Shown here: positions 3,430-30,861 of the stretch, piece by piece | Position numbering within the stretch: position 1 is the first letter of the stretch | How the letters are laid out: each line of letters begins with the position of its first letter | Source: Candidatus Eiseniibacteriota bacterium | GTDB lineage: Bacteria > ARS69 | NCBI GenBank assembly: GCA_052390515.1 | Contig: JBQTGV010000058.1 | Location: forward strand, 1 to 64,000 | Length of the DNA: 64,000 bases | Direction: 5' to 3' | Program-made: the position numbers and the translations under genes | The notes under the pieces: generated by a model | Database searches by the model: none | The model's input: the letters and a program-made list of their open reading frames with translations, nothing else | What the model was told of the DNA's origin: nothing

Positions 3430-3441
3430 GGCACCGGCGCC

Positions 3442-11104: not shown

Positions 11105-11125
11105 CGTCCACCCACTGCGCACCCG

Positions 11126-13690: not shown

Positions 13691-14314
13691 TCACGCTTTG
13701 GATTCGCGGATCGGCCCCGGTTTCTCGTCTTGCAGCTCGCCGAGCTCGGCGATCAGCTCGCGCACCCGCCGCAGCACGCGATGCTTCGTGCCGTAGACCG
13801 CCTCGACGGGAAGCTCGAGCGCCTTCGCCGCATCGGCCGGCGAGCGGTCCTCCAGGACCACGAGCTCGAAGACCCGGAACGCGGAGGCGTCGAACTCCGC
13901 CCGCGCGCGCTCGATGCCCTTTTCCAGGAGGTGCCGGCTCCACAGGCGGTCCCAGACGTCCACGACGGCGGCCTCGTCCATGGATCCCTTCGGCTCGGCG
14001 CCCTCGGGGAGGGCGGGCGCCGGCGGATCGTGCGCGTCGCGGCGCCTCTGGCGGAGGGCCTGCTTGTAGGCGATTCCGAAGAGCCAGCGGCTCAGGCGGC
14101 CAGACGCCCTGTCGTATTTGCCGCCGCGGTATGCCTCGGCGAACGCGAGCAGCGTGTTCTGGGCGACGTCTTCGCAGTCCGCAGGAGCCACGCCCACCTG
14201 CCGCACGAAGCTCGCGATGGGAGGGCGAAAACGTTCGACGAGCCGGTCCCAGGCCCCGCGATTCGAGTAATCGCGGAGGTCGTGCAGGATCGTCGTCGTC
14301 GTGAGCCAGTCCAC
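13691..14314 (-). CDS. ECF sigma-70 family sigma factor
   Basis: 'TTTTILHDL...AWDRLVERFRPPI...DCEDVAQ...GRLSRWLFGIA' and region 4 'VEAVYGTKHRVLRRVRE'; GTG start at 14314 inferred. Confidence 0.88.
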   Translation of the reverse strand: MDWLTTTTILHDLRDYSNRGAWDRLVERFRPPIASFVRQVGVAPADCEDVAQNTLLAFAEAYRGGKYDRASGRLSRWLFGIAYKQALRQRRRDAHDPPAPALPEGAEPKGSMDEAAVVDVWDRLWSRHLLEKGIERARAEFDASAFRVFELVVLEDRSPADAAKALELPVEAVYGTKHRVLRRVRELIAELGELQDEKPGPIRESKA

Positions 14315-14374
14315 GGGGGCCTCCGGGCGGACTCTAAGGGAGCCGGGCCGCCGGTGGCGAGAGGGGCCGGCCTC

Positions 14375-14403
14375 GTGAAGATCCGGACCCCCAAGAGCGA
14401 ATA
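14375..14403 (+). promoter_or_regulatory. Putative ECF-type promoter for the 14473 gene
   Basis: GTGAAGATCCGGA-N10-CGAATA aligns without gaps to GTGTGAATCCGGA-N10-CGTTCT at 19014-19042; lies divergent from an ECF gene. Confidence 0.4.
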
Positions 14404-14472
14404 CGGGCAAGCAGGCGACCGGCGGGCGCGGGAAGACCGCGCGGGGCGGCCGCCCCCACCCGGAGTGTTTCC

Positions 14473-16695
14473 ATGCGCTGGATCGGTTCCTCGAAGGGTA
14501 GTGCGTCCGTTTCGCTCGTTGCGGCGGCAACGTGGCTCGCTATGGCCTCGCCTGCGCGCGCGGCCTCGGACTGGAACATCTTCCTCGGCGCCGAAGCGAC
14601 GCTCGACACCGGCGGGATCGTCCGCGGCATCGTGACCGACGGCCCCTACACGTTCGTGGCGAATGACACGGACTTTCGCATCTACGATCACGGTGACCCC
14701 GGCAATCCGGTGCAGATCGGCGGGCTACCGATCGCCGCGCAGGCGGTGGCGTACCGCGCCGCCAGCGGTTGGCTCGTCGTGGCCGACGTGACGAGCGTGC
14801 ACCTCGCGGACGTGTCGAACCCCGCGGCCCCGGCCGTCTTCGACACGCAGCCGGTCCTGGGTGGCGTATCGAACCTGCAGTTCTCCGACGACGGGCTGTT
14901 CGTGCTCGGGGCGGGCGGCAACAACGTCCACCGGTGGGACGTGGATTCGTTCGGCCTGTTCAACCTGCAGACGATGACGCTTCCCGTGGCCACGACGGAT
15001 CTCGACGTCAGCGGCAACCTCGCCGCGGTCGGCACCACGCAGGGACTCACGATGCTCGACCTAAGCAACCTCACCATTCTCGATGAGGTCCTTGACTCGT
15101 CCTACGACTGGGCGTGGGTGAGCCCCCAATTCTTTACTGGGGCAGGATCGAGCGGCGGCATCAACTTCTACAACGCGACCGTTCCGACCCAGCTATCACT
15201 CGTCCAGACGATCGAACCGGGTACGACCTTCAACCTCGTGGATATGGCGCAGAACGGCGTGCTCGCGGCCGCCGACGCCGGGTTCGGCCTTCTCCGCACG
15301 TACGACGTCCAAGATCCATTCGCTCCGGTTCAGCTCGGCTCGGCGAGGCTGCCCGGCGTCACGGAGCAGCTCGTCGCCTCTAACGACGGGCGCGTCGTCG
15401 CCGGCGCGGGTTCAGGACTCGTAATAATCCACGCCTCGGGCCCGGACGGCCTTGATCTGGAGGGCACCCTGAGCCTCGGCGCGTCGCCCACCTCCGCTGT
15501 GCACGACCCCACGAATCGGCTCCTGCATGTCGGGTCGAGCGACGGTACCATCATCACCTTCGACACCACGGACCCCGCGAACCCCACGACCGTCGGGACG
15601 TTCTCGACGGGCCAGTTCATCCTCGAGCTCAGCAAGGTCGCGAATGCCTTGTACGTGCGTAACTTCAATGGGCTGCTCGCGCTCGACTACACGAATGCGG
15701 TCACTCCCTTTCTCATAAGGAGCTTCACGGGCCTCACCGGCGACATCGACGCCGACGGCGACCGCCTCGTGCGTGCTCGGACTGACGTGCCCATCGTGGA
15801 GATCTTCCACGGCGCCGATGCTCCGCTCACCGTCGGCATACAGACCGTTTCGGTCTCCGGTTTCGCCCAGGCCATCGACCTTCGCGGGACGGAGATCCTG
15901 GCCGCCGTCGGGGCGGCAGGCATCCGGCACATCGACTTCACGAGCGGGGTGGTCATGACGACGTATCCTGCGTATCCCTTCATGAGCGACGTCGACTTCC
16001 TCGGATCCGTCTCCGGGACTGATTACGCGACTTGGGCGAACGGCGCCCGGAGCTACTACTTCGACCTGAGCAGCGGCGTGGAGATCGACCTAATGGACCT
16101 CCATGCGTTCGTGTCCGCATGGGCCGCGTCTCTTCCTGGCGCTCTTCCTGGCGCTCTGCGCAGCGCCGGTGCCACGCCGGTATACCTCTACGGAACGTCG
16201 CCGCAGGGTTCGATCTTCGTGCTCGACGTGACCGATCCGTCGGATGTGTCCTTCGTGGGCGAGTACACGCAGCCGGGATTCACGCCGCAGTTCGCCGTTC
16301 CTTCGGACGAGGTCGTGTACGTCGGGGACAATTCCGCAGGCGGCCGGCTGGTGATCCTTCCGGCCCACGCGGCCGGCAGCGCGACGGGCGCCGCGGACGT
16401 GGCCGTGCCGGCTGCATCGGGAAACCTGCTCGGCGCGGCTTGGCCGAACCCGTTCGCCGCCTCGACGACCGTTCCTTTCACGGTGAGGCGGACCTCGGTG
16501 GTGAATCTCTCGGTCTTCGACGTGACCGGGCGGCTCGTGAGGACGCTCGCTTCAGGCGGTTTCTCCGCCGGCGAGCACGTCACGTCCTGGGACGGCCAGG
16601 ACGGCTCGGGACGGCCGGCGGCCGCCGGCGTCTACTTCGTCCGCCTCGATGCGGGCGAGGACGCCGCGACTCGCCGGATCGTCCGGCTGCGGTGA
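14473..16695 (+). CDS. Secreted LVIVD-like beta-propeller protein with FlgD-Ig/T9SS-like C-terminal domain
   Basis: Signal peptide; repeats such as DVSNPAAP, DVQDPFAPVQLG, DVTDPSDVSFVG; C-terminal 'PNPF...VFDVTGRLVRTL...WDGQDGSG...AGVYFVRL'. Confidence 0.8.
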   Translation: MRWIGSSKGSASVSLVAAATWLAMASPARAASDWNIFLGAEATLDTGGIVRGIVTDGPYTFVANDTDFRIYDHGDPGNPVQIGGLPIAAQAVAYRAASGWLVVADVTSVHLADVSNPAAPAVFDTQPVLGGVSNLQFSDDGLFVLGAGGNNVHRWDVDSFGLFNLQTMTLPVATTDLDVSGNLAAVGTTQGLTMLDLSNLTILDEVLDSSYDWAWVSPQFFTGAGSSGGINFYNATVPTQLSLVQTIEPGTTFNLVDMAQNGVLAAADAGFGLLRTYDVQDPFAPVQLGSARLPGVTEQLVASNDGRVVAGAGSGLVIIHASGPDGLDLEGTLSLGASPTSAVHDPTNRLLHVGSSDGTIITFDTTDPANPTTVGTFSTGQFILELSKVANALYVRNFNGLLALDYTNAVTPFLIRSFTGLTGDIDADGDRLVRARTDVPIVEIFHGADAPLTVGIQTVSVSGFAQAIDLRGTEILAAVGAAGIRHIDFTSGVVMTTYPAYPFMSDVDFLGSVSGTDYATWANGARSYYFDLSSGVEIDLMDLHAFVSAWAASLPGALPGALRSAGATPVYLYGTSPQGSIFVLDVTDPSDVSFVGEYTQPGFTPQFAVPSDEVVYVGDNSAGGRLVILPAHAAGSATGAADVAVPAASGNLLGAAWPNPFAASTTVPFTVRRTSVVNLSVFDVTGRLVRTLASGGFSAGEHVTSWDGQDGSGRPAAAGVYFVRLDAGEDAATRRIVRLR

Positions 16696-16699
16696 TCCA

Positions 16700-18373
16700 T
16701 CAGCGCGCCGCGTGTCTGAGCGTCAGCTCGTGGAGCCAGATGCGGCCCGGCGCCGCGTCGGCCAGCATCCGCGCGGTGGCGAAGACGTCGTCACCGGGAT
16801 GAGACTCGGCGGGGGCTGGCAGCCGCGCCAGCGAGGTGATGCCGCGGTAGAGATCGACGCCGGAGCCGGGGGGAAGCGGCACGGCGAGCGCCCCCGGCGC
16901 GGGACGAGGCAGCCGCTCCAGCGCGCGTTCGAACTCGCGGAGCGGCGCTTCGGCCGCGACGACGAGGAAGCGCTCGGTGCCGCCCTCGGTGCCGACGACC
17001 CAGCCGAGCGGCTCGGCCCGGCCGGCGAAGCTGCCGGGGAGGTCGACTTCGCGGCCGGCGCTCACCGGATTCGAGAGGGTGAGCCCCGGCAGCGGGAAGA
17101 GCAACGCGAGCGCCCCGCGGTCGTCGGCATTCAGCACGTACACGTGGCAGTCGCGGGCCGGGTCGAGGCGAAGGTGCAGCACGTCGCCGACGCGCACCGG
17201 ATCTCCGGAGACGAGCGGCTCCCATGCGGACGCGCGCAGCCAGCGAGCGTCGGCGACCAGCGCGGGTGGCGGTGTGGCTTCGCCGCGAAGCAGCACGAAG
17301 GCGACCGCGACGGCAACCGCGGCGACGCCGGCCGCGGCGACGAGCCGCACCGGCCGCGCCGTGGCCCGCACGAGCGCCCCCCCGAGCTCCCGCGCGGTGG
17401 CGAAGCGCGCCACGGACATGGGAGAAACCGCTCGCTCGATCGTCGCCGCGAGGCGCGGGGGGAAGTCCGCGCGGGCGCCGCGCAGCGAGAGACGCCGCCC
17501 CGCGGCGTGCGCTTCGAGCAGGGCGTGGCGCGTGTCGCCCTCCACGGGGAACCGGCCGGTGGCCAGGTGGAAGAGCAGCACGCCGAGCGAGTACACGTCA
17601 TCGCGCGGCGAAGGGGCGGTGCCGCCGGAGAGCGCCTCGGGCGGCGCGTACAGCGGGGTGAGCGCCGCGCGTTCGCCGCCGGATCCGCGCCCGCGTGAGC
17701 CCGCGCCGAAGTCCACGAGCACGACGCGCCCGTCCGCGCGCTTGGACACGTTCTGCGCCTTCACGTCACCGTGCACGAGGTCCCGGGCGTGAACCGCGTC
17801 GAGCGCCGCGCACAGCTCCCGGCCGATCCGCGCGACCTCGCGGGGGGGCAGCGGCCCCTCCCGCCGGAGCACCGCGTCGAGCCCCGAGCCCTCCACGAAC
17901 TCCATCCAGATTCCGGGGCGGCCGTCGCGCGTGGCCGCCCCGTACACGCGGGCCACGCCCGGATGATCCACCTGCGCGAGCAGACGCGCCTCCTCGAGTA
18001 TCCGCTCCGCGGCGCCGGAACTGCCGTCGTCCCGCAGCAGCTTGAGCGCCGCGGGCCGGTTCAGCGCCGGATCCCACGCGCGATAGACGTCGCCGAACGC
18101 GCCTTCGCCCACCTTCTCGAGGATGCGAAGCTCGCCCCACGACGCCGGCTGCGCGGCTGCAGCGTCCGGCCCCATGGATGCCGCGCCGGCGACCGACCCG
18201 GCGGCGGCGGCGCCTCCGGGGCCGCGGTGGAACTCGCTCAGCCTGGACAGCGCGATGAGGTTCGCCACCACCGCCGAGCGCGAGCCCTCACCGAACCCGG
18301 AGGCGTCGGGCACTGCCCGTCCCTCGGCGATCGCATCGGCCAGGCGTTCGACCTCCTCCTCGTCACTCCGCAT
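16700..18373 (-). CDS. Ser/Thr kinase with TM segment and extracytoplasmic DUF4384-like domain
   Basis: VGEGAFGDVY, ALK, HGDVKAQN, DFG; TM AAAGVAAVAVAVAFVLL; 'VRVGDVLHLRL...HVYVLN...LLFP...GTERFLVVAA' DUF4384-type pattern. Confidence 0.88.
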   Translation of the reverse strand: MRSDEEEVERLADAIAEGRAVPDASGFGEGSRSAVVANLIALSRLSEFHRGPGGAAAAGSVAGAASMGPDAAAAQPASWGELRILEKVGEGAFGDVYRAWDPALNRPAALKLLRDDGSSGAAERILEEARLLAQVDHPGVARVYGAATRDGRPGIWMEFVEGSGLDAVLRREGPLPPREVARIGRELCAALDAVHARDLVHGDVKAQNVSKRADGRVVLVDFGAGSRGRGSGGERAALTPLYAPPEALSGGTAPSPRDDVYSLGVLLFHLATGRFPVEGDTRHALLEAHAAGRRLSLRGARADFPPRLAATIERAVSPMSVARFATARELGGALVRATARPVRLVAAAGVAAVAVAVAFVLLRGEATPPPALVADARWLRASAWEPLVSGDPVRVGDVLHLRLDPARDCHVYVLNADDRGALALLFPLPGLTLSNPVSAGREVDLPGSFAGRAEPLGWVVGTEGGTERFLVVAAEAPLREFERALERLPRPAPGALAVPLPPGSGVDLYRGITSLARLPAPAESHPGDDVFATARMLADAAPGRIWLHELTLRHAAR

Positions 18374-18926
18374 CGCCCATCTCCTCGGCCAGGCGGATCA
18401 GCGCCCGCTTCACCTTCATTCGTGCCGCGTGCGCCGACGCGCTGCCCAGCAGGTCCGCGATCTCGTCGTACTCGCAGTGCATCTCGATCCGCGCCACGAC
18501 AGCCTCCCGGTCGGAGTCCGAGAGCCGTTCGAGCGCCGCTTCGTAGCGCTCCAGGGTCTCCTTCCCGATCACCTCCGCGAGCGGAGAGGCGGCCGGCGGC
18601 GGAGGCTGGACCTCGCCGAGCGCGCGTTCGCCGACGTCCCGCCGGCGGATCTGGTCCCGGATCCGGTTCGTCACCGCCTGACGCAGGTAGGCGAAGAACG
18701 CCCCGCTTCCATCCGGCCGGAACGACTGCAAGTGCCGCAGCGACTGCACCACCGCGTCCTGCACGACGTCCTCGGTGTCGAGCAGGGACCGTGCACTGCC
18801 CGGCAGACGGCCTGTCGCCCAGCGAGTGAGCCGCGGCACCAGCCTCCGGCACAGGCTGTCCAGCGCCTGATCGTCTCCGGACTTCGCCCGATTCAGCAGG
18901 AGCGAGGTCGTCTCCCCGGTCTTCAT
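18363..18926 (-). CDS. ECF sigma-70 family sigma factor (kinase-associated), paralogue of 165..767
   Basis: 'LTRWATGRLP...DTEDVVQD...FFAYLRQAVTNRIRD'; region 4 'LERLSDSDREAV...YDEIA'; overlaps the kinase start. Confidence 0.9.
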   Translation of the reverse strand: MKTGETTSLLLNRAKSGDDQALDSLCRRLVPRLTRWATGRLPGSARSLLDTEDVVQDAVVQSLRHLQSFRPDGSGAFFAYLRQAVTNRIRDQIRRRDVGERALGEVQPPPPAASPLAEVIGKETLERYEAALERLSDSDREAVVARIEMHCEYDEIADLLGSASAHAARMKVKRALIRLAEEMGDAE

Positions 18927-18975
18927 GCCCGGAATCCTAGCACCGAGCGCCGGAGGGATCGTCCCGGATCCACTC

Positions 18976-19006
18976 CCAGAACGAGCGAGGCGGCGCGAAT
19001 TCACAC
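18976..19006 (-). promoter_or_regulatory. Putative ECF promoter facing the ECF gene (autoregulatory)
   Basis: Minus strand reads GTGTGAAT-N15-CGTTCTGG, with the same boxes and spacing as the plus-strand copy. Confidence 0.7.
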
Positions 19007-19013
19007 CGCCGGC

Positions 19014-19044
19014 GTGTGAATCCGGAGGGAGCTCTTCGTTCTGG
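19014..19044 (+). promoter_or_regulatory. Putative ECF promoter facing the small protein-S8-CHAT operon
   Basis: GTGTGAAT-N15-CGTTCTGG; the CGT-type -10 box is typical of ECF promoters. Confidence 0.7.
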
Positions 19045-19123
19045 AGTTGTTCCCCGGCGGGGGTCGCCGAGACTGGCCACGGCGGCCGCCGCCTCCCTAC
19101 CACGCACCACCGGGAGACTCGAA

Positions 19124-19651
19124 ATGTACAGGACGCGAATCGCCGCTCTCGCTCTCTCCACCCTGATGGCCGCCGGCACGGTTCCGGCGCAACCCACCGA
19201 GCCCACGCCGGCCACGGCGCGGGAGGTCACGAGCGCGGAGGTGGACGAGGCCGCCGCGCGCCCGCTCCCGCTGTACGGACCGATCCAGGCGAAGGACCCG
19301 CTGGTGCGCGCCGAGATCAAGCGACTGTATCTCGAGCGCGGCCGCGTCGCCGCGGACACGCAGACGAAGGTCGCCGAGCTCGGCGCGCGGATGGCCGCTG
19401 AGCGAGATCCGGACTTTCGCTTCGAGATGAGCCGAGAGATCGGTCAGCTCAAGCGTCACGCCGAGCGCCGCGGCATGGAGATCGGACTGGAGATCGCGCG
19501 GCTCAACGGCGACGCCGAGCGCGTGGCCGAGTTCGAGGCCGCATTGGATCAACTGCTGAACCCGGATCGGTATCTGCCGGCTCCCGTCGACCCGTCGCTG
19601 CAGGCGGAGCGGATCCGCCGCCTTTCGACCGACGTGGAGGTGGGACGATGA
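19124..19651 (+). CDS. Small secreted helical hypothetical protein
   Basis: ATG 19124 after GGGAG; signal peptide MYRTRIAALALSTLMAAGTVPA; ATGA overlap with the S8 gene. Confidence 0.7.
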   Translation: MYRTRIAALALSTLMAAGTVPAQPTEPTPATAREVTSAEVDEAAARPLPLYGPIQAKDPLVRAEIKRLYLERGRVAADTQTKVAELGARMAAERDPDFRFEMSREIGQLKRHAERRGMEIGLEIARLNGDAERVAEFEAALDQLLNPDRYLPAPVDPSLQAERIRRLSTDVEVGR

Positions 19652-22600
19652 AGCCGTCCGCCCTGTTGCTCGCCGCCCTTCCCGTCCTGGCTCTCTCGCC
19701 GGACTCGCGGGCGATGGACTTCGCCGAGAGACGCGGCGACTTCTGGTACGACTCCGAGGGAACGCTGGTCGCCGCGCGCCACGCGGAATGGCCCGAAGGC
19801 GTGGAGCGGCGGCCCATGAGCCACCGCGAGAAGATGCAGATGCTCGGGCTGCAGCTCCCCGCCCCGGGCCTGCGCGCGCTGAAGCCGCGGGCAGTGCCGA
19901 TGAAGCACGAGCGCGTGCACCTGTACCCCGAGCTGCAGGAACACGTCGTCATCGTGAAGTTCCGGGACGACACCCCGGTTCGGCTTCGCGGCGGCGCACT
20001 GACTTCCTTCGGCCGCGCCGCGGGCGCCGCGCAGACGGTGCTCGCCGCGTATCCCGATGGACGCCTGGAGCGCGGATTCTCGGTCGAGGAGCGCATCCTC
20101 GACGAAAACCGCGAGACGGGGCAGCTCCTTTCCGGCAAGGAGCTCGCCGACCTCAACAACTACTACGTCGTGCGCTTCCCAGAGGGGTCGCGGCGCGGCA
20201 TCGACGTGGCCAACGAGCTGCTCGCGCTGGACGAGGTCGAGACTGCGTACCTGGAGGCGCCACAGTCCGATCCGTCCTGCGCCGACATCCTCCCCGTCAC
20301 CGGGACGTGGGAGACGTTCCAGAACTACCTCGATCCCGCGCCGGCCGGGCTCGACTCCGAGTTCGCCTGGGCGTACCACGCCGGAGGTGACGGCTTCGGC
20401 TCAGGTTACTGGGTGATGGACTGTGAGCGCACCTGGACCTTCGACCACGAGGATCTGAACTTCTCGGCCAGTGACGTCGTGAACGGAGTGACCGGAGCCT
20501 GGTACAGCGACCACGGCACCGCGGTGGTGGGCGAGTACGGCGCCTGCGACAACGGCTACGGGATGACCGGCATGACGCCGGACGTCGCGCTCAAAGCGAT
20601 GGACCACAACACCGAACCGACGTTCGCCGCCGGGGTGGCCGTGGCCGACGCCTGGCTCGTGGCCGGAGAGATCATGCTCCTGGAGTCCCAGCTGGCGGGT
20701 CCGCCTTCCGGCGGGATCTGCCCCTGCAACTGCCCCGACTTCGACTCCGTTCCCGTCGAGTACGATGCGATGACGTTCGCCGCGATTCAGACGGCGACGG
20801 CCAACGGCATCATCGTCGTGGAAGCCGGTGCGAACGGCTCCGCGAACCTCGACAACATTGGCCTGTACGGGAACCTCTTCCAGCTCTGGTTCCGGGACTC
20901 CGGCGCCATCCTGGTCGGTGCGTCGGATCTCACCCACGCGCCCATGTGCTTCACCAGCACCGGCAGCCGGATCGACGTGCACGCGTACGGAACGTCGGTC
21001 TACTCGACCGGCTACGGCGACCAGTGGAGCGGGTCCTTCCTCGACAAGAAGCAAGACTACACCGCGAGCTTCAACGGCACGTCGAGCGCATCGCCCATGA
21101 TCGTGGGCGCCTGCGCGTCCCTGCAGGGAATCGCCAAGGCGAAGTACGGAGTCACGCTGACCCCCGCGCAGATGCGCAGCGTGATCAAGTTGGGCGGAAC
21201 ACCGCAGCTCCCGGGCGGGAACATCGGCCCCATGCCGAACCTTGCGGCGGCGATCAATGTGCTGGAGCCGGATCTGCGCGAGTACCAACCCGTCGGCTGG
21301 AGCTACCCCATCGTGCCGCGCTCGACCGCGGACGCGACCAGCGTGAGCGCGGTGCTTCCCACCGGTGCTCTCCCGGGGAATGGCGCCAGCACCTACTACA
21401 ACTTCGCGCTGCAGAACTCCGCCGGGTCGTACACCCCGGCGGTGAACTCGCCCGACTCACGCCTCCACCTGGAGGACACGCCGATCTGGGAGGTCGTCGA
21501 TACGAACCTCGCACCGGGGGCGTGGGGCTGGGCGGTGAACCTGCCCACCGTCACCAAGGGCGGACGCCACTCGCTCACCTTGATCGTCGACTACGCCGGC
21601 GTGGAGTCCGAGTCCAACGAGGGGAACAACGCGTGGCGCCGCCAGTTCATCTGGTCGGGCCTCGGCCTGATCGAGGACGTACCTCTGACGCGCACCGCCG
21701 ACCCCATCGCGCTGGGCGCGAATTACGCGGGACCCTGGTACAACGCCGAGGGTGTCCACGGCTCCACCGGAACGACCTACTGGCACGCGTTCGCCGTGGC
21801 GCCGACCCTGGCCAGCGACGACTTCGACGTCCGCCTCAACACCGAGGTCCCCGCCAACGTCCCGCAGGCCGGGTTCGGCGCGCACGTGGCCTGGTCCTCC
21901 GAGCCCGCCGGGATGGTCGACTTCGTGGTGCTGGACCGCAACCAGGTGGGGGCCGGCACCTTCTACGCGAGCCTCGTGAACTTCAGCGGCAGCGGCTCCA
22001 AGATCGTCGAGTTCGAGTCGGACGACGGAGCGCTGGCCCCCGGAGTCCATGGCCCGTACACGATCCAAGCGGGCGACCTCGTTGACGTTCACGAGGTCTT
22101 CCTGAACACCGGCCAGGAGTACCGCGTCCACGTCGAGGTGCTCTCGGGGCTCGCGGACATCGGCATCTCCGTGTTCGATGGTACGGGCGGCTTCTTCGAC
22201 AAGACGGCAACGATGCCGGGCGGTTTCGGCGATGCCGCCGGGCCCGGGCAGGACGAGTACGCCGTCGTGGCTCCCGCCGCGAACGACTTCTACGGGGCGG
22301 TCGTGTGGAAGCGCGGGTCGGCGGACGTCAGCCAGTCGCTGACCTACAACCTTCACGTGAGCGTCCTCCCCAACTTGGTGGGAAGCCGCGCGCCCTCCGG
22401 CTGGGACCGACCCATCGTGCCGCGGAACACTCGAGATGCGGTGTTCCTCGTCGATCTCCCCGCCATGCTGAACGGCAACGCGGCCACCACGTCGTTCAAC
22501 TGGGCGACGTACAACGAGGGGGCGAATCAGGCTCCAGGGCCGTGGCGGACCGATCTGTTCGTGGACGACGTGTTGCGGCTGACGTCGACGGCGGCGGGTT

Positions 22601-23790
22601 CGCTGAATTCCGGGGCGTACTACGCGGTGATGAATTCGGTGCAGAGCACGGTGACCGGCGGCAGACATCACCTGCGCTCCTCGGCCGACGTGCTGGCGCA
22701 GCTCACCGAGTTCGACGAGGCGGACAACGCGCGGACGGAGGCCTTCGTGTGGTCGCCGCTGAGCCTGACGGACGGAGTGCCGGTCACGCGCGCGGCCCCA
22801 CCCCGGAAGGACCCGCTCGGGTACGGTCCCTGGTGGTCGGTGGACGGCCTTCGCGCCGCGCCAACCACATACTGGACCGCCGTCGGCATCGTGCCGGTGA
22901 ACGCGGCGGACACCTACGACCTGCGGATGCACGACGCCTCGACCGGCAGCGAGGACGGCTTCGCGGCGCCCCGGATCTGGTCGTACGACGGCTCCGGTGA
23001 TTGCGTTTTCGCGCTGACGAACTACAACCTGGAACCGCTGGGCGCGAAGGACTACGGCATCCTGAACTGGAGCGGCACCGGGAACGTGGCGGCGCAGCGC
23101 TCGGATGCACCGATCCTCGCAGGGTACTCGGGCGGCGTGGTCCGGTACGGACCGTACTCGCTGGGCGCCGGCACGATCCTCGCCGCCTACGAGTTCTACC
23201 TGGATCCGCTCGCCGCCGGGACGCCCCTGCACGTCTCCGTGAACGCTACCGCGGGGACCGCGAACCTCGTCGTGGCGATCTTCGACGGGCAGGGCGCTCC
23301 CGCATACGGGAAGTACGATGCGCTCGCCCTGGTGGACGCGGCCGGCGGCGGCGCGGACGAGCACCTGCCGCCGTTGACGCTGTCCCCGGGCTTCTACGCC
23401 GTCGTCGTGCACAAGCGCGGCTCGGCGGACCTGCCGCTCACGGCGAACTTCGATCTCGTGCTCTCGGGCGCGAACGTGGTGGGCGTCGAGGAAGCGCAGT
23501 TCGTTCCGTCGACGTTCGCCCTGGCCGCGCCGCGGCCGAACCCGGTTCGGGACGCGGTGACGCTGGAGTTCGACGTGCCCGCCGGTGGCGAGCCCGTTCG
23601 CCTCGGGGTCTTCGACCTGATGGGGCGGCAGGTGGCCACCCTGGCCGACGGTTCGGTGGCGGCCGGCCGGCACGCCATCTCGTGGAACGGACGGTCCTCG
23701 ACCGGTGAGCGCACCGCCGCGGGCGTGTACTTCGTGCGCCTGGACGCGCCATCCGGGTCGTGGACACGCAAGGTCACGCTGTTGCGCTAG
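19648..23790 (+). CDS. Secreted S8 (subtilisin-family) serine peptidase with duplicated CARDB-like modules and FlgD-Ig/T9SS-like CTD
   Basis: Triad motifs VMDCE, DHGTAVVG, FNGTSSASP; oxyanion region EAGANG; C-terminal 'PNP...VFDLMGRQV...AGVYFVRL'. Confidence 0.9.
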   Translation: MKPSALLLAALPVLALSPDSRAMDFAERRGDFWYDSEGTLVAARHAEWPEGVERRPMSHREKMQMLGLQLPAPGLRALKPRAVPMKHERVHLYPELQEHVVIVKFRDDTPVRLRGGALTSFGRAAGAAQTVLAAYPDGRLERGFSVEERILDENRETGQLLSGKELADLNNYYVVRFPEGSRRGIDVANELLALDEVETAYLEAPQSDPSCADILPVTGTWETFQNYLDPAPAGLDSEFAWAYHAGGDGFGSGYWVMDCERTWTFDHEDLNFSASDVVNGVTGAWYSDHGTAVVGEYGACDNGYGMTGMTPDVALKAMDHNTEPTFAAGVAVADAWLVAGEIMLLESQLAGPPSGGICPCNCPDFDSVPVEYDAMTFAAIQTATANGIIVVEAGANGSANLDNIGLYGNLFQLWFRDSGAILVGASDLTHAPMCFTSTGSRIDVHAYGTSVYSTGYGDQWSGSFLDKKQDYTASFNGTSSASPMIVGACASLQGIAKAKYGVTLTPAQMRSVIKLGGTPQLPGGNIGPMPNLAAAINVLEPDLREYQPVGWSYPIVPRSTADATSVSAVLPTGALPGNGASTYYNFALQNSAGSYTPAVNSPDSRLHLEDTPIWEVVDTNLAPGAWGWAVNLPTVTKGGRHSLTLIVDYAGVESESNEGNNAWRRQFIWSGLGLIEDVPLTRTADPIALGANYAGPWYNAEGVHGSTGTTYWHAFAVAPTLASDDFDVRLNTEVPANVPQAGFGAHVAWSSEPAGMVDFVVLDRNQVGAGTFYASLVNFSGSGSKIVEFESDDGALAPGVHGPYTIQAGDLVDVHEVFLNTGQEYRVHVEVLSGLADIGISVFDGTGGFFDKTATMPGGFGDAAGPGQDEYAVVAPAANDFYGAVVWKRGSADVSQSLTYNLHVSVLPNLVGSRAPSGWDRPIVPRNTRDAVFLVDLPAMLNGNAATTSFNWATYNEGANQAPGPWRTDLFVDDVLRLTSTAAGSLNSGAYYAVMNSVQSTVTGGRHHLRSSADVLAQLTEFDEADNARTEAFVWSPLSLTDGVPVTRAAPPRKDPLGYGPWWSVDGLRAAPTTYWTAVGIVPVNAADTYDLRMHDASTGSEDGFAAPRIWSYDGSGDCVFALTNYNLEPLGAKDYGILNWSGTGNVAAQRSDAPILAGYSGGVVRYGPYSLGAGTILAAYEFYLDPLAAGTPLHVSVNATAGTANLVVAIFDGQGAPAYGKYDALALVDAAGGGADEHLPPLTLSPGFYAVVVHKRGSADLPLTANFDLVLSGANVVGVEEAQFVPSTFALAAPRPNPVRDAVTLEFDVPAGGEPVRLGVFDLMGRQVATLADGSVAAGRHAISWNGRSSTGERTAAGVYFVRLDAPSGSWTRKVTLLR

Positions 23791-23854
23791 TCTGACGGAG
23801 GCGCGCCTTTACGCCGGGTGACGGCGCAGACTACCCTGCCCGCGGGAGGTGGCG

Positions 23855-26800
23855 ATGTTGGCAACCCACCCGCGGGCGGGGTTCGTCGGCGCCTTGCTGC
23901 TGCTCGCCGCGGCCGGCGCCACAGCCGAAGAGACCGACGACATCGAGGTGCTCCTCGAGACTCGGGATCTGGTGCGTGCCGAGGCGATCGCGCGGGAGAG
24001 GCTGGCCGCGGCCGAGGCCTCCGGTGACCGAACCGCTCAGGCCGGCGCCCGCGACGGCCTGATCCGTGTGCGGCTGCGCGCGCGAGACGTCGACGAGGAT
24101 CTCCTGGCCTTCGCCGAGGAGACGCTCGCCCGCAAGCGAGCGCTGTTCGGTGCCGACCACTCCGAGGTGGCCACGAGCCTCTATCACCTCGGCGCGTGTC
24201 TGGATCTCGCCGGCCGTCCCGACGAAGGCAAGGCGCACATGGACGAAGCGCTGGCGATGCGACGCCGCGTGCTCGGGGACCGCCACCCCGATGTCGCGAG
24301 GTCGCTCGCCGGGCTGGGCATCTACGAGTGGCGCAACGGCCGGCTCGCCGAGGCCGAGGCTCTCCTGGAACAGGCACTCGACATCCAGGACGAGGTACCC
24401 GCCACGGCCGGGGAGATCGTCGGCACGCTGCAGTTTTTGAGCCTCGTTCAGGCGAAGCTCGGCGAGATCGAGGAGGCGGTGGAGCGGGCGCGGCGCGCCG
24501 TCTTCATCCGAGAGGACCTTCACGGCGCCGGGCATCCGCGAACCGCGGAGGCGCTCCACAACCTGGGAGCGGTGTACTCCGAGGCCGCCGCTCTGCAGGA
24601 CGCGCTCGCCACGGAGCTGCGCGCGGCCGCCGCGCTGGAAGGCGCCGCGACGCACTGGGACTGGCTCCGCGCGCCCGTCTTCAACAACCTGGCCAACTTC
24701 GAGGGATCGCTCGGGAACTTCCCAGCCGCGCGCTCCTGGGCCGAGCGCTCCGTGGACCTGCTCGAACGAATGTACGGAGCAGACAGCGCCGACTACGCGT
24801 TCGGGCTGAACAGCCTCGGGCTCCAGCAGCTCGTCATGGGCGATCTGGACTCGGCGCGGCGCGCCTTCGAGCGCGTGCTGGCCGTCTACGAGGCCACGCT
24901 TCCGGCCGACCACCGCTGGACCCTGCTGGTCCTCACCGATCTCGCTTCGGTGGAGCATCGCAGCGGCAACTTCGCGAGGGCGGTCGAGCTGCTGGAGAGG
25001 GCGGTGCCAGGGATCCAGGAAGAGTTCGGCGACGGCGGCGACGCGGCCTTCGCGTGGGGGAGCCTCGGGGAGGCGCGCCTCGCGGCCGGTGACGTGAACG
25101 GGGCGATCGCCGCGCTCGAGAGGTCCCGCACCATGATCGAGGGCGTCTCCGGCCCGGAGAGCGCCGACCTGCCGCGCGTACTCGGGCTGCTGGCGCGCGC
25201 CCACACCCGGAACGGCAACCGGGAGGCCGCCGAGCTCTTCCACGTGCGGTGCCTGGACCTGAGCGCGCAAGCCAGCGGCGAGGACTCCATCCTCTACGAG
25301 AGCGAGCTGCGCGTGTACGCGCGCTTTCTGTTCGAAGGCGGCGAGATGGAGCGCGCCTTCGAGGCGGCCCTTCGCGCCGACGAGCTGTCCCGGAATCACG
25401 TGCGCATCAACGTGCGCGGTCTCGCGGAGCGCGAAGCGCTCGCGTTCCTGGGCACCCGCTCGCGCGGGACCGACGTGCTGATGGCCGTGGTCGAGAGCGA
25501 AGCGTCGGACCGAATCGATCCCAGGGTGGAGTCGGCCTGGGACGCCGTGATCCGTTCGCGGTGCCTCGTGCTCGACGAGATGATCGAGCGCAACCGCGCG
25601 GTGGTCGGGACCGAGGATGCCGGCGTCGCCGCCGTCCGAGCGAGATATCGCGAAGCGGGCGAACGTCTCGCCGGGCTCTGGCTCTCGCAGTCCGCCGGCG
25701 GCGCGAGCCGCGAGGAAGTCGACGCGGCACGTGCGGAACTGGAGCAGTCCGAGCGCGCGCTCGCCGACGCCAGCGCATCGTTCCGAGATGCTGCGTCGCA
25801 GTCGCGGGCGGGGTTCGCGGAGGTGCGCTCCGGGCGGCCCGCGCGCTCGGCCGTCGTCGCCTACGCGAGGTACGACGCGCCCCTCCCTGGTGGATTCGAG
25901 GCGGAGACGCGCTACTTCGCCTTCGTCCTGCCAGCCGACGGCATGGCTCCGCGCGCGGTCTCGCTCGGACCTGCGGATCAGATCGATGGTCTCGTGAGGA
26001 CGTGGCGCGCCACCCTGGTCGCCGGCGAGTCCGCCGCCCGCGAGGCCGGCTCACGCCTGCGAGAATCCGTCTGGGATCCGGTGGCTCCGCTCGTGGGCGA
26101 AGCACCCGATCTCGTGCTGGTCGTGCTCGACGGCGCGTTGCACGAGGTCTCGCTGGCGGCGCTGCCGGATGGGGACGGCGGCTACCTCGTCGAGACGGGG
26201 CCGACCTTCCACCACTTGAGCTCCGAGCGCGACGCCGCGCGCGTCGCCGCCGAGACGACCGGCCGCGGACTGCTGGTCGTCGGCGGGGCGGATTACGACG
26301 CGGATCCGCGAGGCGGCGGGGCCGAGCTCGCGGCGGCCGGCCCGGCTCCGGGCGTCGCCGTCTTCCGCGGCGCGCACGCGGACTGTCGCGGATTCGCCGA
26401 GCACCGCTTCGAGCAGCTCCCCGCCACCTCACGGGAGGCGCGCGACGTCGCGACGCTCTGGGGACCCGACGCCGCGTTGCTGGAAGGGGACGCGGCCACG
26501 GAAGCGGCCTTCCGCGCCCACGCTCCGGGTCGCCGCGTCCTGCACCTGGCGACTCACGGCTTCTTCCTCGGCGGGGACTGCCGCACGGCAGCGTCCGGAG
26601 AGCGCGGCGTGACTGGCGTCGTGCCGCTGGGCGATGCCCCCTCGGCAGGACCGCCGCTGGCCGAACTGCACCCGCTGCTCGCGTCCGGAGTGGCGCTAGC
26701 CGGCGCGAACCGCCGCGCTCGGGTCGCGGCCGGAGAGGACGACGGGATCCTGACGGCGCAGGAGATCGGCGCGCTGGATCTCGGCGGCGTGGAGTGGGCC

Positions 26801-27100
26801 GTACTTTCGGCGTGCGACACCGGGATCGGCCGCGTGGCGGCGGAGGAAGGGGTGCTCGGTCTACAGCGCGCGTTCGCGGTGGCCGGGGCGAGGACCGTGC
26901 TCATGACGCTCTGGCCGGTGAAGGACGAGGACGCGCACGCGTGGATGAGCGCACTCTACGCGCGGCGCGCAGCCGGGGCCGGCACGGCCGAGGCCGTGCG
27001 CGCGTCGAGCCTGCAGTTCCTGAGGCAGCTTCGCGAGCGCGGCGAGGACGCCAGTCCCGCGCGGTGGGGCGGGCTCGTCGCCGTGGGGGACTGGCGGTAA
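23855..27100 (+). CDS. Signal-peptide TPR-CHAT (caspase-like, clan CD) protease
   Basis: Signal peptide; TPRs 'LG..HP.VA.SL..L'; intact dyad motifs LHLATHGF and VLSACDTG; DDGILTAQEI, LWPVKD, PARWGG; ATG after GGGAGG. Confidence 0.9.
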   Translation: MLATHPRAGFVGALLLLAAAGATAEETDDIEVLLETRDLVRAEAIARERLAAAEASGDRTAQAGARDGLIRVRLRARDVDEDLLAFAEETLARKRALFGADHSEVATSLYHLGACLDLAGRPDEGKAHMDEALAMRRRVLGDRHPDVARSLAGLGIYEWRNGRLAEAEALLEQALDIQDEVPATAGEIVGTLQFLSLVQAKLGEIEEAVERARRAVFIREDLHGAGHPRTAEALHNLGAVYSEAAALQDALATELRAAAALEGAATHWDWLRAPVFNNLANFEGSLGNFPAARSWAERSVDLLERMYGADSADYAFGLNSLGLQQLVMGDLDSARRAFERVLAVYEATLPADHRWTLLVLTDLASVEHRSGNFARAVELLERAVPGIQEEFGDGGDAAFAWGSLGEARLAAGDVNGAIAALERSRTMIEGVSGPESADLPRVLGLLARAHTRNGNREAAELFHVRCLDLSAQASGEDSILYESELRVYARFLFEGGEMERAFEAALRADELSRNHVRINVRGLAEREALAFLGTRSRGTDVLMAVVESEASDRIDPRVESAWDAVIRSRCLVLDEMIERNRAVVGTEDAGVAAVRARYREAGERLAGLWLSQSAGGASREEVDAARAELEQSERALADASASFRDAASQSRAGFAEVRSGRPARSAVVAYARYDAPLPGGFEAETRYFAFVLPADGMAPRAVSLGPADQIDGLVRTWRATLVAGESAAREAGSRLRESVWDPVAPLVGEAPDLVLVVLDGALHEVSLAALPDGDGGYLVETGPTFHHLSSERDAARVAAETTGRGLLVVGGADYDADPRGGGAELAAAGPAPGVAVFRGAHADCRGFAEHRFEQLPATSREARDVATLWGPDAALLEGDAATEAAFRAHAPGRRVLHLATHGFFLGGDCRTAASGERGVTGVVPLGDAPSAGPPLAELHPLLASGVALAGANRRARVAAGEDDGILTAQEIGALDLGGVEWAVLSACDTGIGRVAAEEGVLGLQRAFAVAGARTVLMTLWPVKDEDAHAWMSALYARRAAGAGTAEAVRASSLQFLRQLRERGEDASPARWGGLVAVGDWR

Positions 27101-27161: not shown

Positions 27162-29358
27162 TCATCGGCGGACGACCAGCTTCCGAGTCACCACGTCGAC
27201 ACCTGCCTGGAGACGACACCAGTACACACCGGAGGGTAGCCCGTCCGAGACGAAGCTCAGGCGGTGCTCGCCGGTACCGAGCCACTTGTCTTCGATCGGG
27301 GTCGATACCCGGCGCCCGGCGACATCGAACACGTCCACTCGAACGCGCGCAGCAGCCGGGAGCGCGAAGCGGACCTCGGTCCCGAGCTCGAAGGGGTTGG
27401 GCGCGCTCTCCAGGGCGATCCGTGAGCCGGACTCCTGGAGGTAAGCCCGCACGCCGGTCGTGGCGGACGGATCGGTCAGTGGCGCAGTGGTCCTCGTCGA
27501 CGTTTTGATCACCGCGAAGTTGGCCCGTGGAATCCCGCCGACACCCACAAAGGAGCCGCTTGCGCACACGCTCGAGCCGCTCACTACGAGCGCGTGCACA
27601 ACGGATGAGATTCCGCCAAGAGCTTGCGCGCCCGGATTCCACGCGGTGGCCGCGCCGGTCACGGCGTCGAGCGCGGCGATGTTCTCACGCGGCCGGCCAC
27701 CGATTGCGTCGAACCGTCCGCCCACGTATACGATCGATCCGCTCACCGCGAGCGCGGAAACCCGCGTGGACGGACCCGTGGCGACGGGGTCCCACGCCGT
27801 GGCCGCTCCCGTACCGGCGTCCAATGCCGCGAGTCGGCTGCGCGTCTGGCCCCCGATGCTCGTGAAGGTGCCGCCCGCGTACACCGTCGCACCGCTCACC
27901 GCGAGCGCGCTGACCACAGAGTCTGGATCGGCTCTCCAGCTTGTGGCGGAGCCGGTAACTGCATGGAGCGCGGCTAGGTGGCTCCGTGGCTGGCTGCCCG
28001 CTTGCGTGAATAGCCCACCCGCGTACACGGTCGAGTCGCTGACCGCGAGCGCCAAGACGGTGCTGTCGGCGCCCGGATCCCAGCTCGTCGCGGAGCCGGT
28101 GGCGGCGTCGAGCGCCGCGAGGTGAGCCCGTTGCTGGCCGCTGATGCTGGTGAAGTGACCGCCGACGTAGACCGTCGAGCCGACTACCGCGAGTGCCGAG
28201 ACGATGTTGTCAGCACCCGGATCCCAGCTCGTGGCGGCGCCGGTCTCGACGTCGAGGGCCGCGATGTTGTTACGCGGTTCGCCGCCGACGCTGTTGAAGG
28301 AGCCTCCGGCGTATACCGTCGTGCCGGTCGCTGCGAGCGCCAGTACGAAGCTGTCGGCATGGGGGCTCCAAGTCGTTGCAGCACCGGTCGCGGAGTCGAG
28401 CGCGGCGATGTTGCTGCGCGGCTGGCCGCCCGTCGTCGTGAAGCGCCCTCCCACGTAAACCGTCGAGCCGCTCACCGCTATCGCGTGGACCACGCCGTCG
28501 GCGCCCGGGTTCCAGGTCGTGGCCAGGCCGCTAGTGGTGCTGATCGCGGCGATGCTCTTTCGCGGCTGGCCACCGATGCTGCTGAAGCCGCCGCCCACGT
28601 ACACCGTCGAGCCACTGACGGCGAGTGCCCGGGGAAGCGGCGGGGGCCATGCGGAGGCCGCGGGATTTCAGGGGTTGACCGCACCAGTCGATGCGTCGAT
28701 CGCGGCGATGCCGTTGCGCAACTGGCCACCAAGCTTGGTGAAGTAGCCGCCGACGTACAACGTCGACCCGCTCACCGCGAGAGCGGTGACGTACCCCCCG
28801 CTAGTGTCAAGGTTCCAAGTGAACGAGTAGCCTTGAGTGTCTAGTGCGACGAGGTTCCGGTGTGCGTACCCCGCGATGGTGTCGAAGAACCCGCCGGCGA
28901 ACACGATCTGGCCGCGCACGGCGAGCGCCATGACCTCGCGGTTGGCCCCGGGTTCCAGTCCGTCGCCGAACCGGTGACGGCGTGCACCGCGGCGACGTTG
29001 CTGCGCAGCTGACCAGCGATGCTGGTGAAGAGCCGCCCACGTACACCGTCGCGCCGCTCACCGCCAGAGCGGAGACATGGCCGCCGCTGCCGACGCCCGG
29101 GTCCCAGGCCGAGACCGAGAGGTTCGAAGCGATGTGTGCGAGGCTCGCCCGAGGCACTCTGCCGACATGAGTGAGCTGGCCGCCGATGTACCACCCCCCG
29201 GACCCGTCGGGGACCACGGCGAACACGCTGCCCTCGACCTCCGGGAACGACGACGGCAGCAGTCCGCTGGACACGTCTATAGGCGCGCCACTTCCCGTAG
29301 CCGGTCCCACGTAGCTGAAACTCCCTCCCAAGTAGATTGTCTCCTCGCTTGCGGCGAC
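27162..29358 (-). pseudogene. Disrupted paralogue of the 6880..9267 beta-propeller/CTD protein
   Basis: Homology starts abruptly at VAASEETIYLGGSFSYVGP with no signal peptide; 1-nt deletions near 29031 and 28947; in-frame TGA at 28668-28670 replaces the W of a WNP repeat; CTD intact. Confidence 0.85.
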
Positions 29359-30861
29359 CGGCTCGGCGAGGGGGCATTCGGCGAAGTGTTCCGTGCCTGG
29401 GACCCGAGGCTCGAGCGCGAGGTCGCCCTCAAGCTCCTCAAGGCTGCCGGCGGGAAGAGCCCGATCGCCTCGAACGTGATCGCCGAAGGCCGGCTGCTCG
29501 CCAAGCTTCGCCACCCGAACGTCGTCACCGTCCACGGCGCTGAGGTCCACGGCGAACGGGTCGGCGTCTGGATGGAGTTCGTCCGCGGGCGCTCGCTCGA
29601 GCAGATCCTCCGCGACCACGGGCCTTTCGGCGCGCGGGAGGCGGGGCTCATCGGCATCGACGTCTGCCGCGCGCTGGCGGCGGTGCACCGGGCCGGCGTC
29701 ATTCACCGCGACGTCAAAGCACAGAATGCGATGCGCGAGGAAGGCGGACGCATCGTGCTGATGGACTTCGGCGCGGGAATCGAGGCGAGCGACGCCGAGA
29801 GCACGAGGAACATCTCCGGCACGCCGCTCTACATGGCGCCCGAGCTGCTTCGTGGAGAGACGGCGACGACGCGTTCGGACATCTACAGCCTGGGCGTGCT
29901 GCTTCACCGCCTGGTCAGCGGAACGTTTCCGATCGAGGCCTCTTCCTGGAGCGAGCTCCGCCAGAAGCACGCGCGGCGGGAATCGAGACTGCTGCGCGAC
30001 GAGCGCCCCGATCTACCGGAGGCGTTCGTGCGGGTGGTGGAGCGTGCCACCGCCTGGGTGCCCGAGGAGCGTTTCGCAACGGCTGGAGAGATGCAGCGCG
30101 CCTTGTCGCAGGCGCTCGGTGTCGAGGAGCACCGCGCTCGGCGGCCTCCCGGAACCCGGGTCATCGCCGGCGGCGCCGTGCTCGTGTCCGCCGCCGTCGT
30201 CGCCGTGCTGCTGATGACGGGAGACAGACAGGATCGGACGACGACACCGACCCTGAACGAGAAGTCCGCCGCCCCCGCCGAACCCGAGGTCCCCGCGGCC
30301 TACACCGTCGAGGCGGGACTCTTCCGCGCACCGCGGGGCGGCGTGCGGGAGCGCATCGAGCCCGGGGCCCAGCTGGCGCTGGGAGACCGGCTCTCCCTCG
30401 AGATCCAGGCGTCGACGCCGCTCCACGTCTACGTCATCAACGAGGACGACGCCGGACGCGCCTTCGCCCTCTTCCCGCTGCCCGGGATCGAGCCGGGGAA
30501 TCCGCTGCCGCCGAACGTGCGGCACGTGCTGCCAGGACAGCGCGACGGGAAGAGCATGTCGTGGACCGTGGACACGCCGGGCGGCCAGGAGCACCTGATG
30601 GTGCTGGCCAGCCCCACCCGGCTGATCGAGTTCGAGGTGGAGATGAACGGCTTGGCCCGTCCCGGTCAGTCGGCGGTTTCGATCCCCGAGTCGGCGAAGA
30701 GCCGGCTGCGAGGTATCGGATCTCTCGAGGAGTCGCCCGCGGCGGTAGAGGGCCAGCCGGCGACTCGCCTCTTCGAGCTCGTCGAGCAGCTCGCCGCCGG
30801 CTCGGAAACGGTCCGCGGCGTCTGGATGCGACGCATCGACCTGGCGAACCCCCAGCGATAG
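29356..30861 (+). pseudogene. 5'-truncated Ser/Thr kinase-TM-DUF4384, paralogue of 16700..18373
   Basis: Kinase homology begins at DRLGEGAFGEVFRAWDP with no in-frame start nearby; upstream DNA is the antisense of the propeller gene; HRDVKAQN, DFG, GTPLYMAPE and DUF4384 are intact. Confidence 0.75.

Follow-up and report, generated by a model that had tools for sequence, protein, structure and literature searches.

The window analysed here is a 64,000-nucleotide stretch of contig JBQTGV010000058.1 of the Candidatus Eiseniibacteriota bacterium assembly GCA_052390515.1. Its G+C content is ~70%, and the source assembly comprises 4,266,055 bases. Five genes occupy positions 16,700 to 27,100 (Table 1); all of them were confirmed, with the coding frames backed by the GC content of third positions. 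Two of them, encoding a sigma factor of the extracytoplasmic function (ECF) type and a Hanks-type kinase that carries DUF4384 on the outer side of the membrane, diverge from three others, whose products are an exported protein of small size, a subtilase of family S8, and a caspase-like protease, likewise exported, that consists of tetratricopeptide repeats (TPR) and a CHAT domain. Domain calls are Pfam profile matches, and motifs and the transmembrane helix were read from the translations. This arrangement had been proposed in an earlier, sequence-only reading of the locus, and both halves of that description are borne out, the ECF–kinase pair by the Pfam matches, the helix and the overlap of the two genes, and the divergent unit, including the signal peptide and intact His/Cys dyad of the protease, by coordinates, Pfam matches and translations. 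Judged from sequence comparison, the ECF, the kinase with DUF4384 and the exported TPR-CHAT protease are the conserved core, a three-gene envelope-signalling module. A motif shared by the kinase sensor and the protease suggests that the two proteins meet directly.

The kinase (Pkinase, 123.6 bits; DUF4384, 37.4 bits with a cut-off of 27, and 41.9 bits in a genome-wide search) starts with an N-terminal extension of ~75 residues, followed by the kinase domain, a transmembrane helix (Leu344–Leu362), the β-sandwich of DUF4384, and a C-terminal helix and strand. Its catalytic motifs are complete and include GEGAFG (residues 89–94), Lys111, His201-Gly-Asp203 (non-RD), Asn208, and Asp221-Phe-Gly. Since there is only one transmembrane helix, DUF4384 is placed outside the membrane. 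The AlphaFold2 (AF2) model of the ectodomain, calculated with a 40-row alignment (predicted local distance difference test, pLDDT, 82.5), shows the β-sandwich with confidence. Ectodomain residues 136–161, whose pLDDT is under 50, form a loop that holds an Arg-Gly pair; it lies between well-folded parts of the model, and the helix and strand that come after it, predicted with confidence, pack back onto the DUF4384 domain. A Foldseek search with this model returned generic β-sandwiches, none at E ≤ 1e-3 and no close solved relative, and the ectodomain profile found nothing below E 0.07 among the sequences of solved structures.

The sigma factor is a group IV sigma-70 protein (Sigma70_r2, 41.6 bits, cut-off 24; Sigma70_ECF, 29.6 bits; TIGR02937, 64.5 bits, cut-off 42.9), with Sigma70_r4_2 at 22.3 bits, under its cut-off of 25.7. 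The highest-scoring NCBIfam subfamily is TIGR02984 (80.8 bits), also under its cut-off (183.75). The start of the kinase gene overlaps the ECF stop by 11 bases, and the two genes are co-transcribed and translationally coupled. A start at GTG 19103, which would give a longer open reading frame (ORF), was rejected in favour of ATG 18926, because the longer ORF would take in the promoter described below and the alignment of orthologues begins at that Met. Orthologues with 49–52% identity adjoin kinase-DUF4384 genes. Region sigma-2.2 reads Asp50-Thr51-Glu52-Asp53-Val-Val-Gln56-Asp57, and its D-T-x-D pattern is kept across 38 module ECFs; in the same 38 sequences the positions of Thr51 and of Ser114 in the linker are Ser or Thr in at least 80%. 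The match to PF07638, 29.8 bits, is slightly above the cut-off (21.1), compared to 148–188 bits for 14 paralogues of the same genome. These 14 strong PF07638 (ECF43-like) sigma factors are spread over a genome of 4.27 Mb, with five of them within a single 28-kb stretch (C44:21367–49107).

The protease scores 191.3 bits with the Pfam CHAT profile and 169.3 bits with TPR_12. By inspection, its N terminus, MLATHPRAGFVGALLLLAAAGATA|EE, has the look of a cleavable signal peptide. The catalytic residues are His903 (26555–26557) and Cys989 (26813–26815). The AF2 model (pLDDT 84.4, with low confidence in the flanks of the motif discussed below) has as its top structural matches Csx29 (8eey_B, E 7e-14, TM-score 0.52), DdvA (8rot_A, E 3.2e-12), and separase (7nj1_A); compared by sequence with solved structures, the protein matched TPR proteins only. 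Module CHAT proteins are ~1000–1150 residues long. A signal-peptide-like start is seen in 24 of the 30 rows listed for them (one ORF stands on two rows), and the dyad is conserved, with His present in 27/27 and Cys in 25/27; of the two copies without Cys, one runs into the end of its contig and the other has a frameshift. Another CHAT gene of the same genome, C159:1–3596(−), is cut by the end of its contig; C5:1–250(+) encodes a CHAT C terminus, and the two contigs may abut.

Within the family to which the source genome belongs, four genomes have between them five further places where under 5 kb separates DUF4384 from CHAT, with the proteins confirmed by Pfam. The ECF, kinase-DUF4384, CHAT and S8 genes are all on one strand in L022; CHAT is divergent from the ECF and kinase-DUF4384 in L023 and convergent with kinase-DUF4384 in L024; and in L025 and L026 an S8 protease, a protein with a sorting tail, and CHAT are divergent from a 303-residue DUF4384 protein. 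A wider search, with an alignment of five kinase ectodomains as the query and one genome per species, yielded 42 loci, three of which duplicate L022–L024; gene counts for the module rest on six-frame scans of these loci with hidden Markov models. Among them are 13 loci from Eisenbacteria, 10 of Acidobacteriota type, three from Krumholzibacteria, and three from metagenome-assembled genomes (MAGs) labelled Gemmatimonadota, as well as one Fibrobacteraceae MAG and one 2.2-kb contig assigned to the ‘Patescibacteria group’. Of the 38 loci with sequence upstream, 37 have the ECF followed by the kinase. CHAT domains occur in the flanks of 26/42 loci; among the 24 loci covering the full 20 kb, 18 have one within 10 kb, compared to a chance expectation that we estimate at ~4% per 20-kb interval (from 7 CHAT places in 4.27 Mb). 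The orders CHAT-ECF-kinase and ECF-kinase-CHAT, as well as divergent and convergent ones, all occur. Recurrence of the triad well above the chance level, with its genes in several arrangements, is the ground on which its members are taken to be functionally linked, and the co-occurrence expected from the sequence-only reading is borne out. Two of these loci have additional features. In L023, two small overlapping ORFs between CHAT and the ECF (11040–11514(−)) are toxin–antitoxin-like by their N-terminal sequences only, and in L063 a single kinase-DUF4384 is surrounded by two ECFs and three CHAT genes of the module type.

The stretch that follows DUF4384 in 44 aligned ectodomains is variable with the exception of an Arg (41/41) and the Gly after it (38/41). 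The consensus of this loop is RLRGVGGL; the kinase of the window reads LYRGITSL, in which the pair is Arg510-Gly511. In the alignment of CHAT domains (25 rows), an Arg is likewise invariant (25/25), within GxRGVGGV and ~16 residues after the catalytic His. The corresponding loop of the window protease is Gly-Glu-Arg919-Gly-Val-Thr-Gly-Val, part of an insertion located 14–23 residues past His903. Common to the sensor loop and the CHAT insertion is the motif R-G-x-G-G-hydrophobic, which takes the form R-G-x-x-G-hydrophobic in the CHAT loop of the window. The insertion is missing in four of six non-module CHATs from family loci (L025, L026, L030, and L031) and in all four readable paralogues of the same genome (C105, C70, C22, and C159), and is present in the unlinked CHATs of L027 and L028. 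The kinase loop with Arg510-Gly511, mirrored by Arg919-Gly920 in CHAT, is a candidate recognition or cleavage site, and the suggestion of the sequence-only reading that the protease acts on the outer domain of the kinase gains comparative support from the invariant Arg-Gly loop and from a locus-matched motif beside the CHAT His. Co-folding of CHAT residues 285–1083 with the kinase ectodomain (363–557), both with alignments, gave a score of 0.01 against a mark of 0.32, which is no evidence either way.

The two motifs also tend to match within loci. Kinase and CHAT carry RGVGGM and RGVGGM in L044, motifs both ending in GGI in L055, RGAGAI and RGAGEI in L067, and RGIGGV and RGIGAV in L061, and in L063 the divergent CHAT (830–3496) matches the kinase motif RGIGGV exactly, with RGLGGV in the adjacent CHAT. 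Thr at P3′, the third residue after the Arg, is found only in the kinase and CHAT of the window. Rare states thus coincide at the same tips of the tree, with Met in both partners in L044, Ile in both in L055 and L067, and Thr at P3′ in the window pair. Over eight variable positions in 22 cognate pairs, 94 identities were counted, compared to 69.6 ± 4.0 after shuffling, and none of 20,000 shuffles, in which relatedness is ignored, reached 94. P5′ is identical in 18/22 pairs, compared to 8.3 expected. A tree-aware test, for which the CHAT tree was built without the loop columns, gave ~3.1 pairs changing in the same direction, 0.1 in the opposite one, and 0.9 with no difference. With a permutation blind to relatedness and only four independent pairs, the co-variation is suggestive and not proven.

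The 197-base spacer between the divergent units has two copies of GTGTGAAT-N15-CGTTCTGG, one on each strand, with their −35 boxes back to back and seven bases between them. Searched as GTGTGAAT-N15-CGTTC, the core gave two matches in the window, compared to 0.01 expected (100 shuffles), and the same two are the sole matches in the whole genome, so that the promoter-like motifs noticed earlier as facing both units stand. The −10 element of the reverse-strand copy lies 53 bases ahead of the ECF ATG. Since this is the layout of an ECF promoter, it is read as autoregulation together with control of the small-protein, S8 and CHAT genes by one sigma factor, and the twin promoters support the view that the two transcription units are regulated together in this genome. 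A relaxed pattern, TGTGAAT-N14–16-CGTTC, precedes the ECF in 5 of 37 module loci, with the −35, spacing, and −10 of the window kept upstream of the orthologous ECF in L034 and L036 only, and TGTGAAG-N15-CGTTC is found upstream of the small-protein–S8 cassette in L013 and L016. No similar motif was found ahead of CHAT or the ECF in L022–L031, and no promoter common to all genera could be defined. Pattern counts are six in the related genome G001 and five in G008, compared to zero for a control pattern; crude gene calls place no module gene downstream of the four extra G001 sites.

The small protein and the S8 protease form a cassette of a different kind. The stop of the first gene overlaps the start of the second (ATGA), and no terminator-like site was found between S8 and CHAT. 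The small protein has no match in Pfam, NCBIfam or PADLOC, and its atlas matches score at most 0.77, below a useful level. The S8 protein (Peptidase_S8, 49.2 bits) has a signal peptide, a CARDB domain, readable His (DHGTAV) and Ser (GTSSASP) motifs, and a sorting tail of type A of the type IX secretion system (T9SS; TIGR04183, 25.7 bits, cut-off 23). The same NCBIfam scan found no T9SS tail in CHAT; S8 is therefore predicted to leave the envelope and CHAT to stay in the periplasm with the kinase sensor. Of 11 genomes of the same family, 7 have the small protein too, each time directly before an S8 of the same kind. As a part of the conserved circuit the cassette was rejected, since it recurs without any CHAT domain in the 11 related loci fetched around its copies; an ECF adjoins it in only one of these (L017), and S8 comes after CHAT in no more than 2 of the 42 module loci. 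A paralogous cassette in the same genome (C154) and another small-protein copy (C4) both lie beside a different ECF of the strong PF07638 type with a kinase-TPR protein. Of the circuit proposed earlier, comprising CHAT, S8, kinase-DUF4384, and ECF, the triad of ECF, kinase, and CHAT is upheld by its recurrence, and S8 with the small protein falls away as a separate cassette.

Table 1. Positions of the features discussed in the text, numbered from the first base of the window.
Feature	Position	Strand	Basis
Hanks-type Ser/Thr kinase, transmembrane, 557 aa	16700–18373	−	Pfam Pkinase and DUF4384
DUF4384 of the kinase, residues 393–476, periplasmic side	16946–17197	−	PF14326 match at these coordinates
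Exposed loop of the kinase ectodomain, residues 498–523, with R510-G511	16805–16882	−	Alignment and AF2 pLDDT
ECF sigma factor, 187 aa	18363–18926	−	Sigma70_r2, TIGR02937
ECF-type promoter towards the ECF–kinase operon	18979–19006	−	Motif search
Twin ECF-type promoter towards small protein, S8 and CHAT	19014–19041	+	Motif search
Small exported helical protein, 175 aa	19124–19651	+	No known family
S8 subtilase, 1380 aa	19648–23790	+	Peptidase_S8, CARDB, FlgD_ig/Por_Secre_tail
Exported TPR-CHAT caspase-like protease, 1081 aa from ATG	23855–27100	+	Pfam CHAT and TPR_12
CHAT insertion loop G917–P926 (GERGVTGVVP)	26597–26626	+	CHAT alignment
Second kinase-DUF4384, 594 aa, without an ECF of its own	29077–30861	+	Pkinase 160.1 bits, DUF4384 48.2 bits

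The whole genome has only two DUF4384 genes, the module kinase and the second kinase-DUF4384 of Table 1, and both flank the CHAT gene of the window. The ectodomain loop of the second kinase reads RLRGIGSL, and the protease may have this protein as a further client. The surroundings of the module are unusually rich in Hanks kinases. An ECF paralogue that is 43% identical to that of the module (165–767(+)) precedes a TPR-tailed kinase (754–3429(+)), a second kinase-linked pair of the same ECF subfamily, without DUF4384 or CHAT. The kinase at 11126–13654(−), with an N-terminal zf-HC2 (28.9 bits) and a TPR tail, resembles an anti-sigma/kinase fusion, and a weak ECF-like ORF (13691–14530(−)) lies upstream of it. 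On the other side, 32606–37081(−) encodes a 1491-residue kinase in which Pfam identifies TPR repeats as well as WD40 propellers, and 37285–40053(+) is a 922-residue ORF with BLAST matches to a kinase domain and TPR-like sequences. The module itself is bordered by β-propeller proteins with T9SS-type C-terminal sorting domains, LVIVD/FlgD_ig at 14473–16695(+) and DUF5122 with Por_Secre_tail at 27162–28604(−), which are probably bystanders.

Comparison with characterised systems places the module between several of them. In the accessible part of PMC11506125, DdvA of Myxococcus xanthus is described as an anti-sigma factor with a periplasmic TPR-CHAT, the partner of the ECF DdvS; no other periplasmic TPR-CHAT has been characterised, and that of DdvA is joined to an anti-sigma domain. 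A signal-induced CHAT cleavage of the flexible periplasmic linker of this membrane regulator is proposed, and DdvA-like proteins are reported only from Myxococcota and one Comamonas species. By its genes and predicted export, the window has in common with DdvA–DdvS a periplasmic TPR-CHAT of the separase/craspase type, with a His-Cys dyad, that is coupled to an ECF. Unlike DdvA, its CHAT is free and exported and is fused neither to a transmembrane helix nor to a zinc anti-sigma domain; a Pfam scan found no zf-HC2 or other anti-sigma match in it, so that it falls outside the DdvA type. The membrane partner is instead a Hanks kinase with DUF4384, and the proposed cut would be made in trans. In type III-E craspase (Csx29, Csx30, Csx31, and RpoE), a TPR-CHAT is also paired with a regulator of an ECF-type sigma factor; Csx30, the substrate of Csx29, holds ECF-type RpoE, and some Csx30 C-terminal domains are DUF4384 (10.1101/2022.08.17.504292). 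In the window such cutting is proposed. Craspase is cytoplasmic and RNA-guided, whereas the CHAT of the window has a signal peptide and the sigma regulator is a kinase; no Cas family was found among 14 ORFs scanned between 11126 and 37081, and PADLOC returned kinase and TPR matches only.

The ECF–kinase pair resembles the ECF43 systems, such as EcfP/PknT of Vibrio parahaemolyticus and EcfK/PknS of Xanthomonas citri (PMC13147305, accessible part), in that the ECF is co-encoded with a transmembrane Hanks kinase having an N-terminal extension and a periplasmic sensor, without an anti-sigma factor (PMC13147305 and PMC7826278, accessible parts); in the window, a Pfam scan found no anti-sigma family among the five genes. 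Kinase-linked ECF groups listed in the same part of PMC7826278 are ECF43, ECF59–62, ECF217, ECF267, and ECF283. The hallmark of ECF43 given in PMC13147305 is an uncharged QTTA with a phospho-Thr, replacing the sigma-2.2 motif DxxD(xxQE), and the periplasmic domain of PknS is described there as restraining autophosphorylation. The ECF of the window lacks QTTA and reads D-T-E-D-V-V-Q-D. Thus the phospho-switch of EcfP/ECF43, to which the sequence-only reading had turned as a model, is not borne out, since the acidic DxxDxxQ[DE] surface is retained and a switch of the EcfP type is not required. The accessible parts of both sources describe no protease partner for ECF43 systems. A literature search that did not extend to supplementary tables found no paper pairing a free exported TPR-CHAT with a DUF4384 receptor kinase, in agreement with the earlier view that the layout is without characterised precedent. 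The interpretation put forward in the sequence-only reading is partly supported, as regards the triad and a direct link of protease to sensor, with S8 an add-on.

Separase is a caspase-fold protease with a helical arm, whose own flexible loops hold substrate-like motifs that occupy the active site or are cut by it. Our comparison with it concerns the mechanism only, separase being eukaryotic and cytoplasmic. Cleavage sites of Arg-specific proteases of clan CD usually look like this one, with an invariant Arg and a Gly after it in a disordered loop. Two unrelated periplasmic loops that keep one motif are most simply read by one site, and CHAT is the only component of the module able to read them, which favours the view that CHAT recognises the sensor loop directly and probably cleaves it after Arg510; the assignment of Arg to P1 rests on analogy with separase and metacaspases. 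The reading we prefer, with the considerations for and against it about evenly balanced, is that of a conserved ECF, kinase, and CHAT module in which CHAT directly recognises, and probably cleaves, the sensor loop, wired in this genome to the small-protein–S8 output.

In this mechanism one CHAT site, most simply the active-site cleft, would read both loops, and the loop of CHAT itself would be an autoinhibitory pseudosubstrate or a self-processing site. A signal received through the TPR arm would let CHAT engage the kinase loop, probably cutting after Arg510. The cut would alter the activity of the kinase and, by analogy with PknS, could release it. The kinase would then control the ECF by phosphorylation, with Thr51 in sigma-2.2 and Ser114 in the linker as candidate sites, and the ECF would transcribe its own operon and the small-protein, S8, and CHAT genes, closing a feedback loop. 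In this genome the module would be wired by the twin promoters, which drive both units, to a separate output cassette of a small exported protein and a T9SS-secreted S8. We infer each of these steps: cleavage, its activating or silencing effect on the kinase, sigma-factor phosphorylation, and a positive feedback. A bolder form may be put forward tentatively, although we consider it more probably wrong than right: a protease-gated receptor kinase, in which a CHAT held by its pseudosubstrate cuts the DUF4384 sensor after the invariant Arg and so switches the ECF, with DUF4384 serving generally as a handle or substrate for caspase-fold proteases.

Several observations weigh against direct recognition with cleavage. 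The permutation test takes no account of the relatedness of the loci, and the tree-aware test, with four independent pairs on well-supported branches (sign-test median p 0.25), cannot reach significance. P5′ differs in the window pair, with Leu in the kinase and Val in CHAT, and in three other pairs, and in G001, where kinases (YRGVTGV and LRGIAGM) and a CHAT with the motif (RGIGSL) are unlinked, an attempt to pair them by their motifs failed. No CHAT was found within 10 kb in 6 of 24 full-length loci (L034, L040, L041, L047, L060, and L062), and the relaxed promoter pattern was not found before the ECF in 32/37 module loci. The EcfP phospho-switch need not apply, and Csx29 is not known to cut after Arg.

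ECF operons often hold their own target genes, and the CHAT gene belongs to the output operon, which has an ECF-type promoter in front of it; this is what would be expected if the ECF–kinase pair sensed some other envelope signal through DUF4384 and CHAT, like S8, were merely its main target. Co-location by itself cannot tell a partner from a target. This explanation is unlikely, though serious, as it accounts neither for the same motif in the sensor loop and in the module-specific CHAT insertion nor for the coincidence of rare variants in the same loci, and CHAT is often found upstream of, or between, the regulator genes. Motif sharing and matching, in turn, call for common recognition and not necessarily for hydrolysis. 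TPR arms are protein-binding modules, and the DdvA dyad is in a resting state in its solved structure (PMC11506125, accessible part), so we can imagine CHAT as a co-receptor, a ligand-binding accessory whose TPR groove or cleft binds the kinase loop, both loops competing for one site and proteolysis being aimed elsewhere or at CHAT itself. Retention of the catalytic dyad in every complete module CHAT, together with the cleavage-site appearance of the invariant Arg-Gly in its disordered loop, makes docking without cleavage rather improbable. A chance neighbourhood, conceivable in a genome crowded with 22 ECF-like matches, 7 CHAT places, and ~48 kinase-domain matches, is very hard to reconcile with CHAT lying within 10 kb in three quarters of the full-length loci from several phyla, with both DUF4384 genes of the genome flanking this CHAT, and with twin promoters unique in the genome.

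Control of ECF sigma factors by Hanks-kinase phosphorylation and by TPR-CHAT proteases, as in DdvA and craspase, are two recently characterised routes, and the module described here appears to join both. It gives DUF4384 a concrete, testable role. If recognition and cleavage of the sensor by CHAT hold, the module would represent a third route from the envelope to transcription, besides proteolysis of anti-sigma factors and ligand-driven kinase dimerisation, and a function of DUF4384 as a handle for caspase-fold proteases would account for the occurrence of this domain in Csx30 and in fusions with caspases. As the module is found across phyla that have been little studied (Eisenbacteria, Krumholzibacteria, and Acidobacteriota), it would then constitute a widespread signalling family and not a curiosity of one genome.

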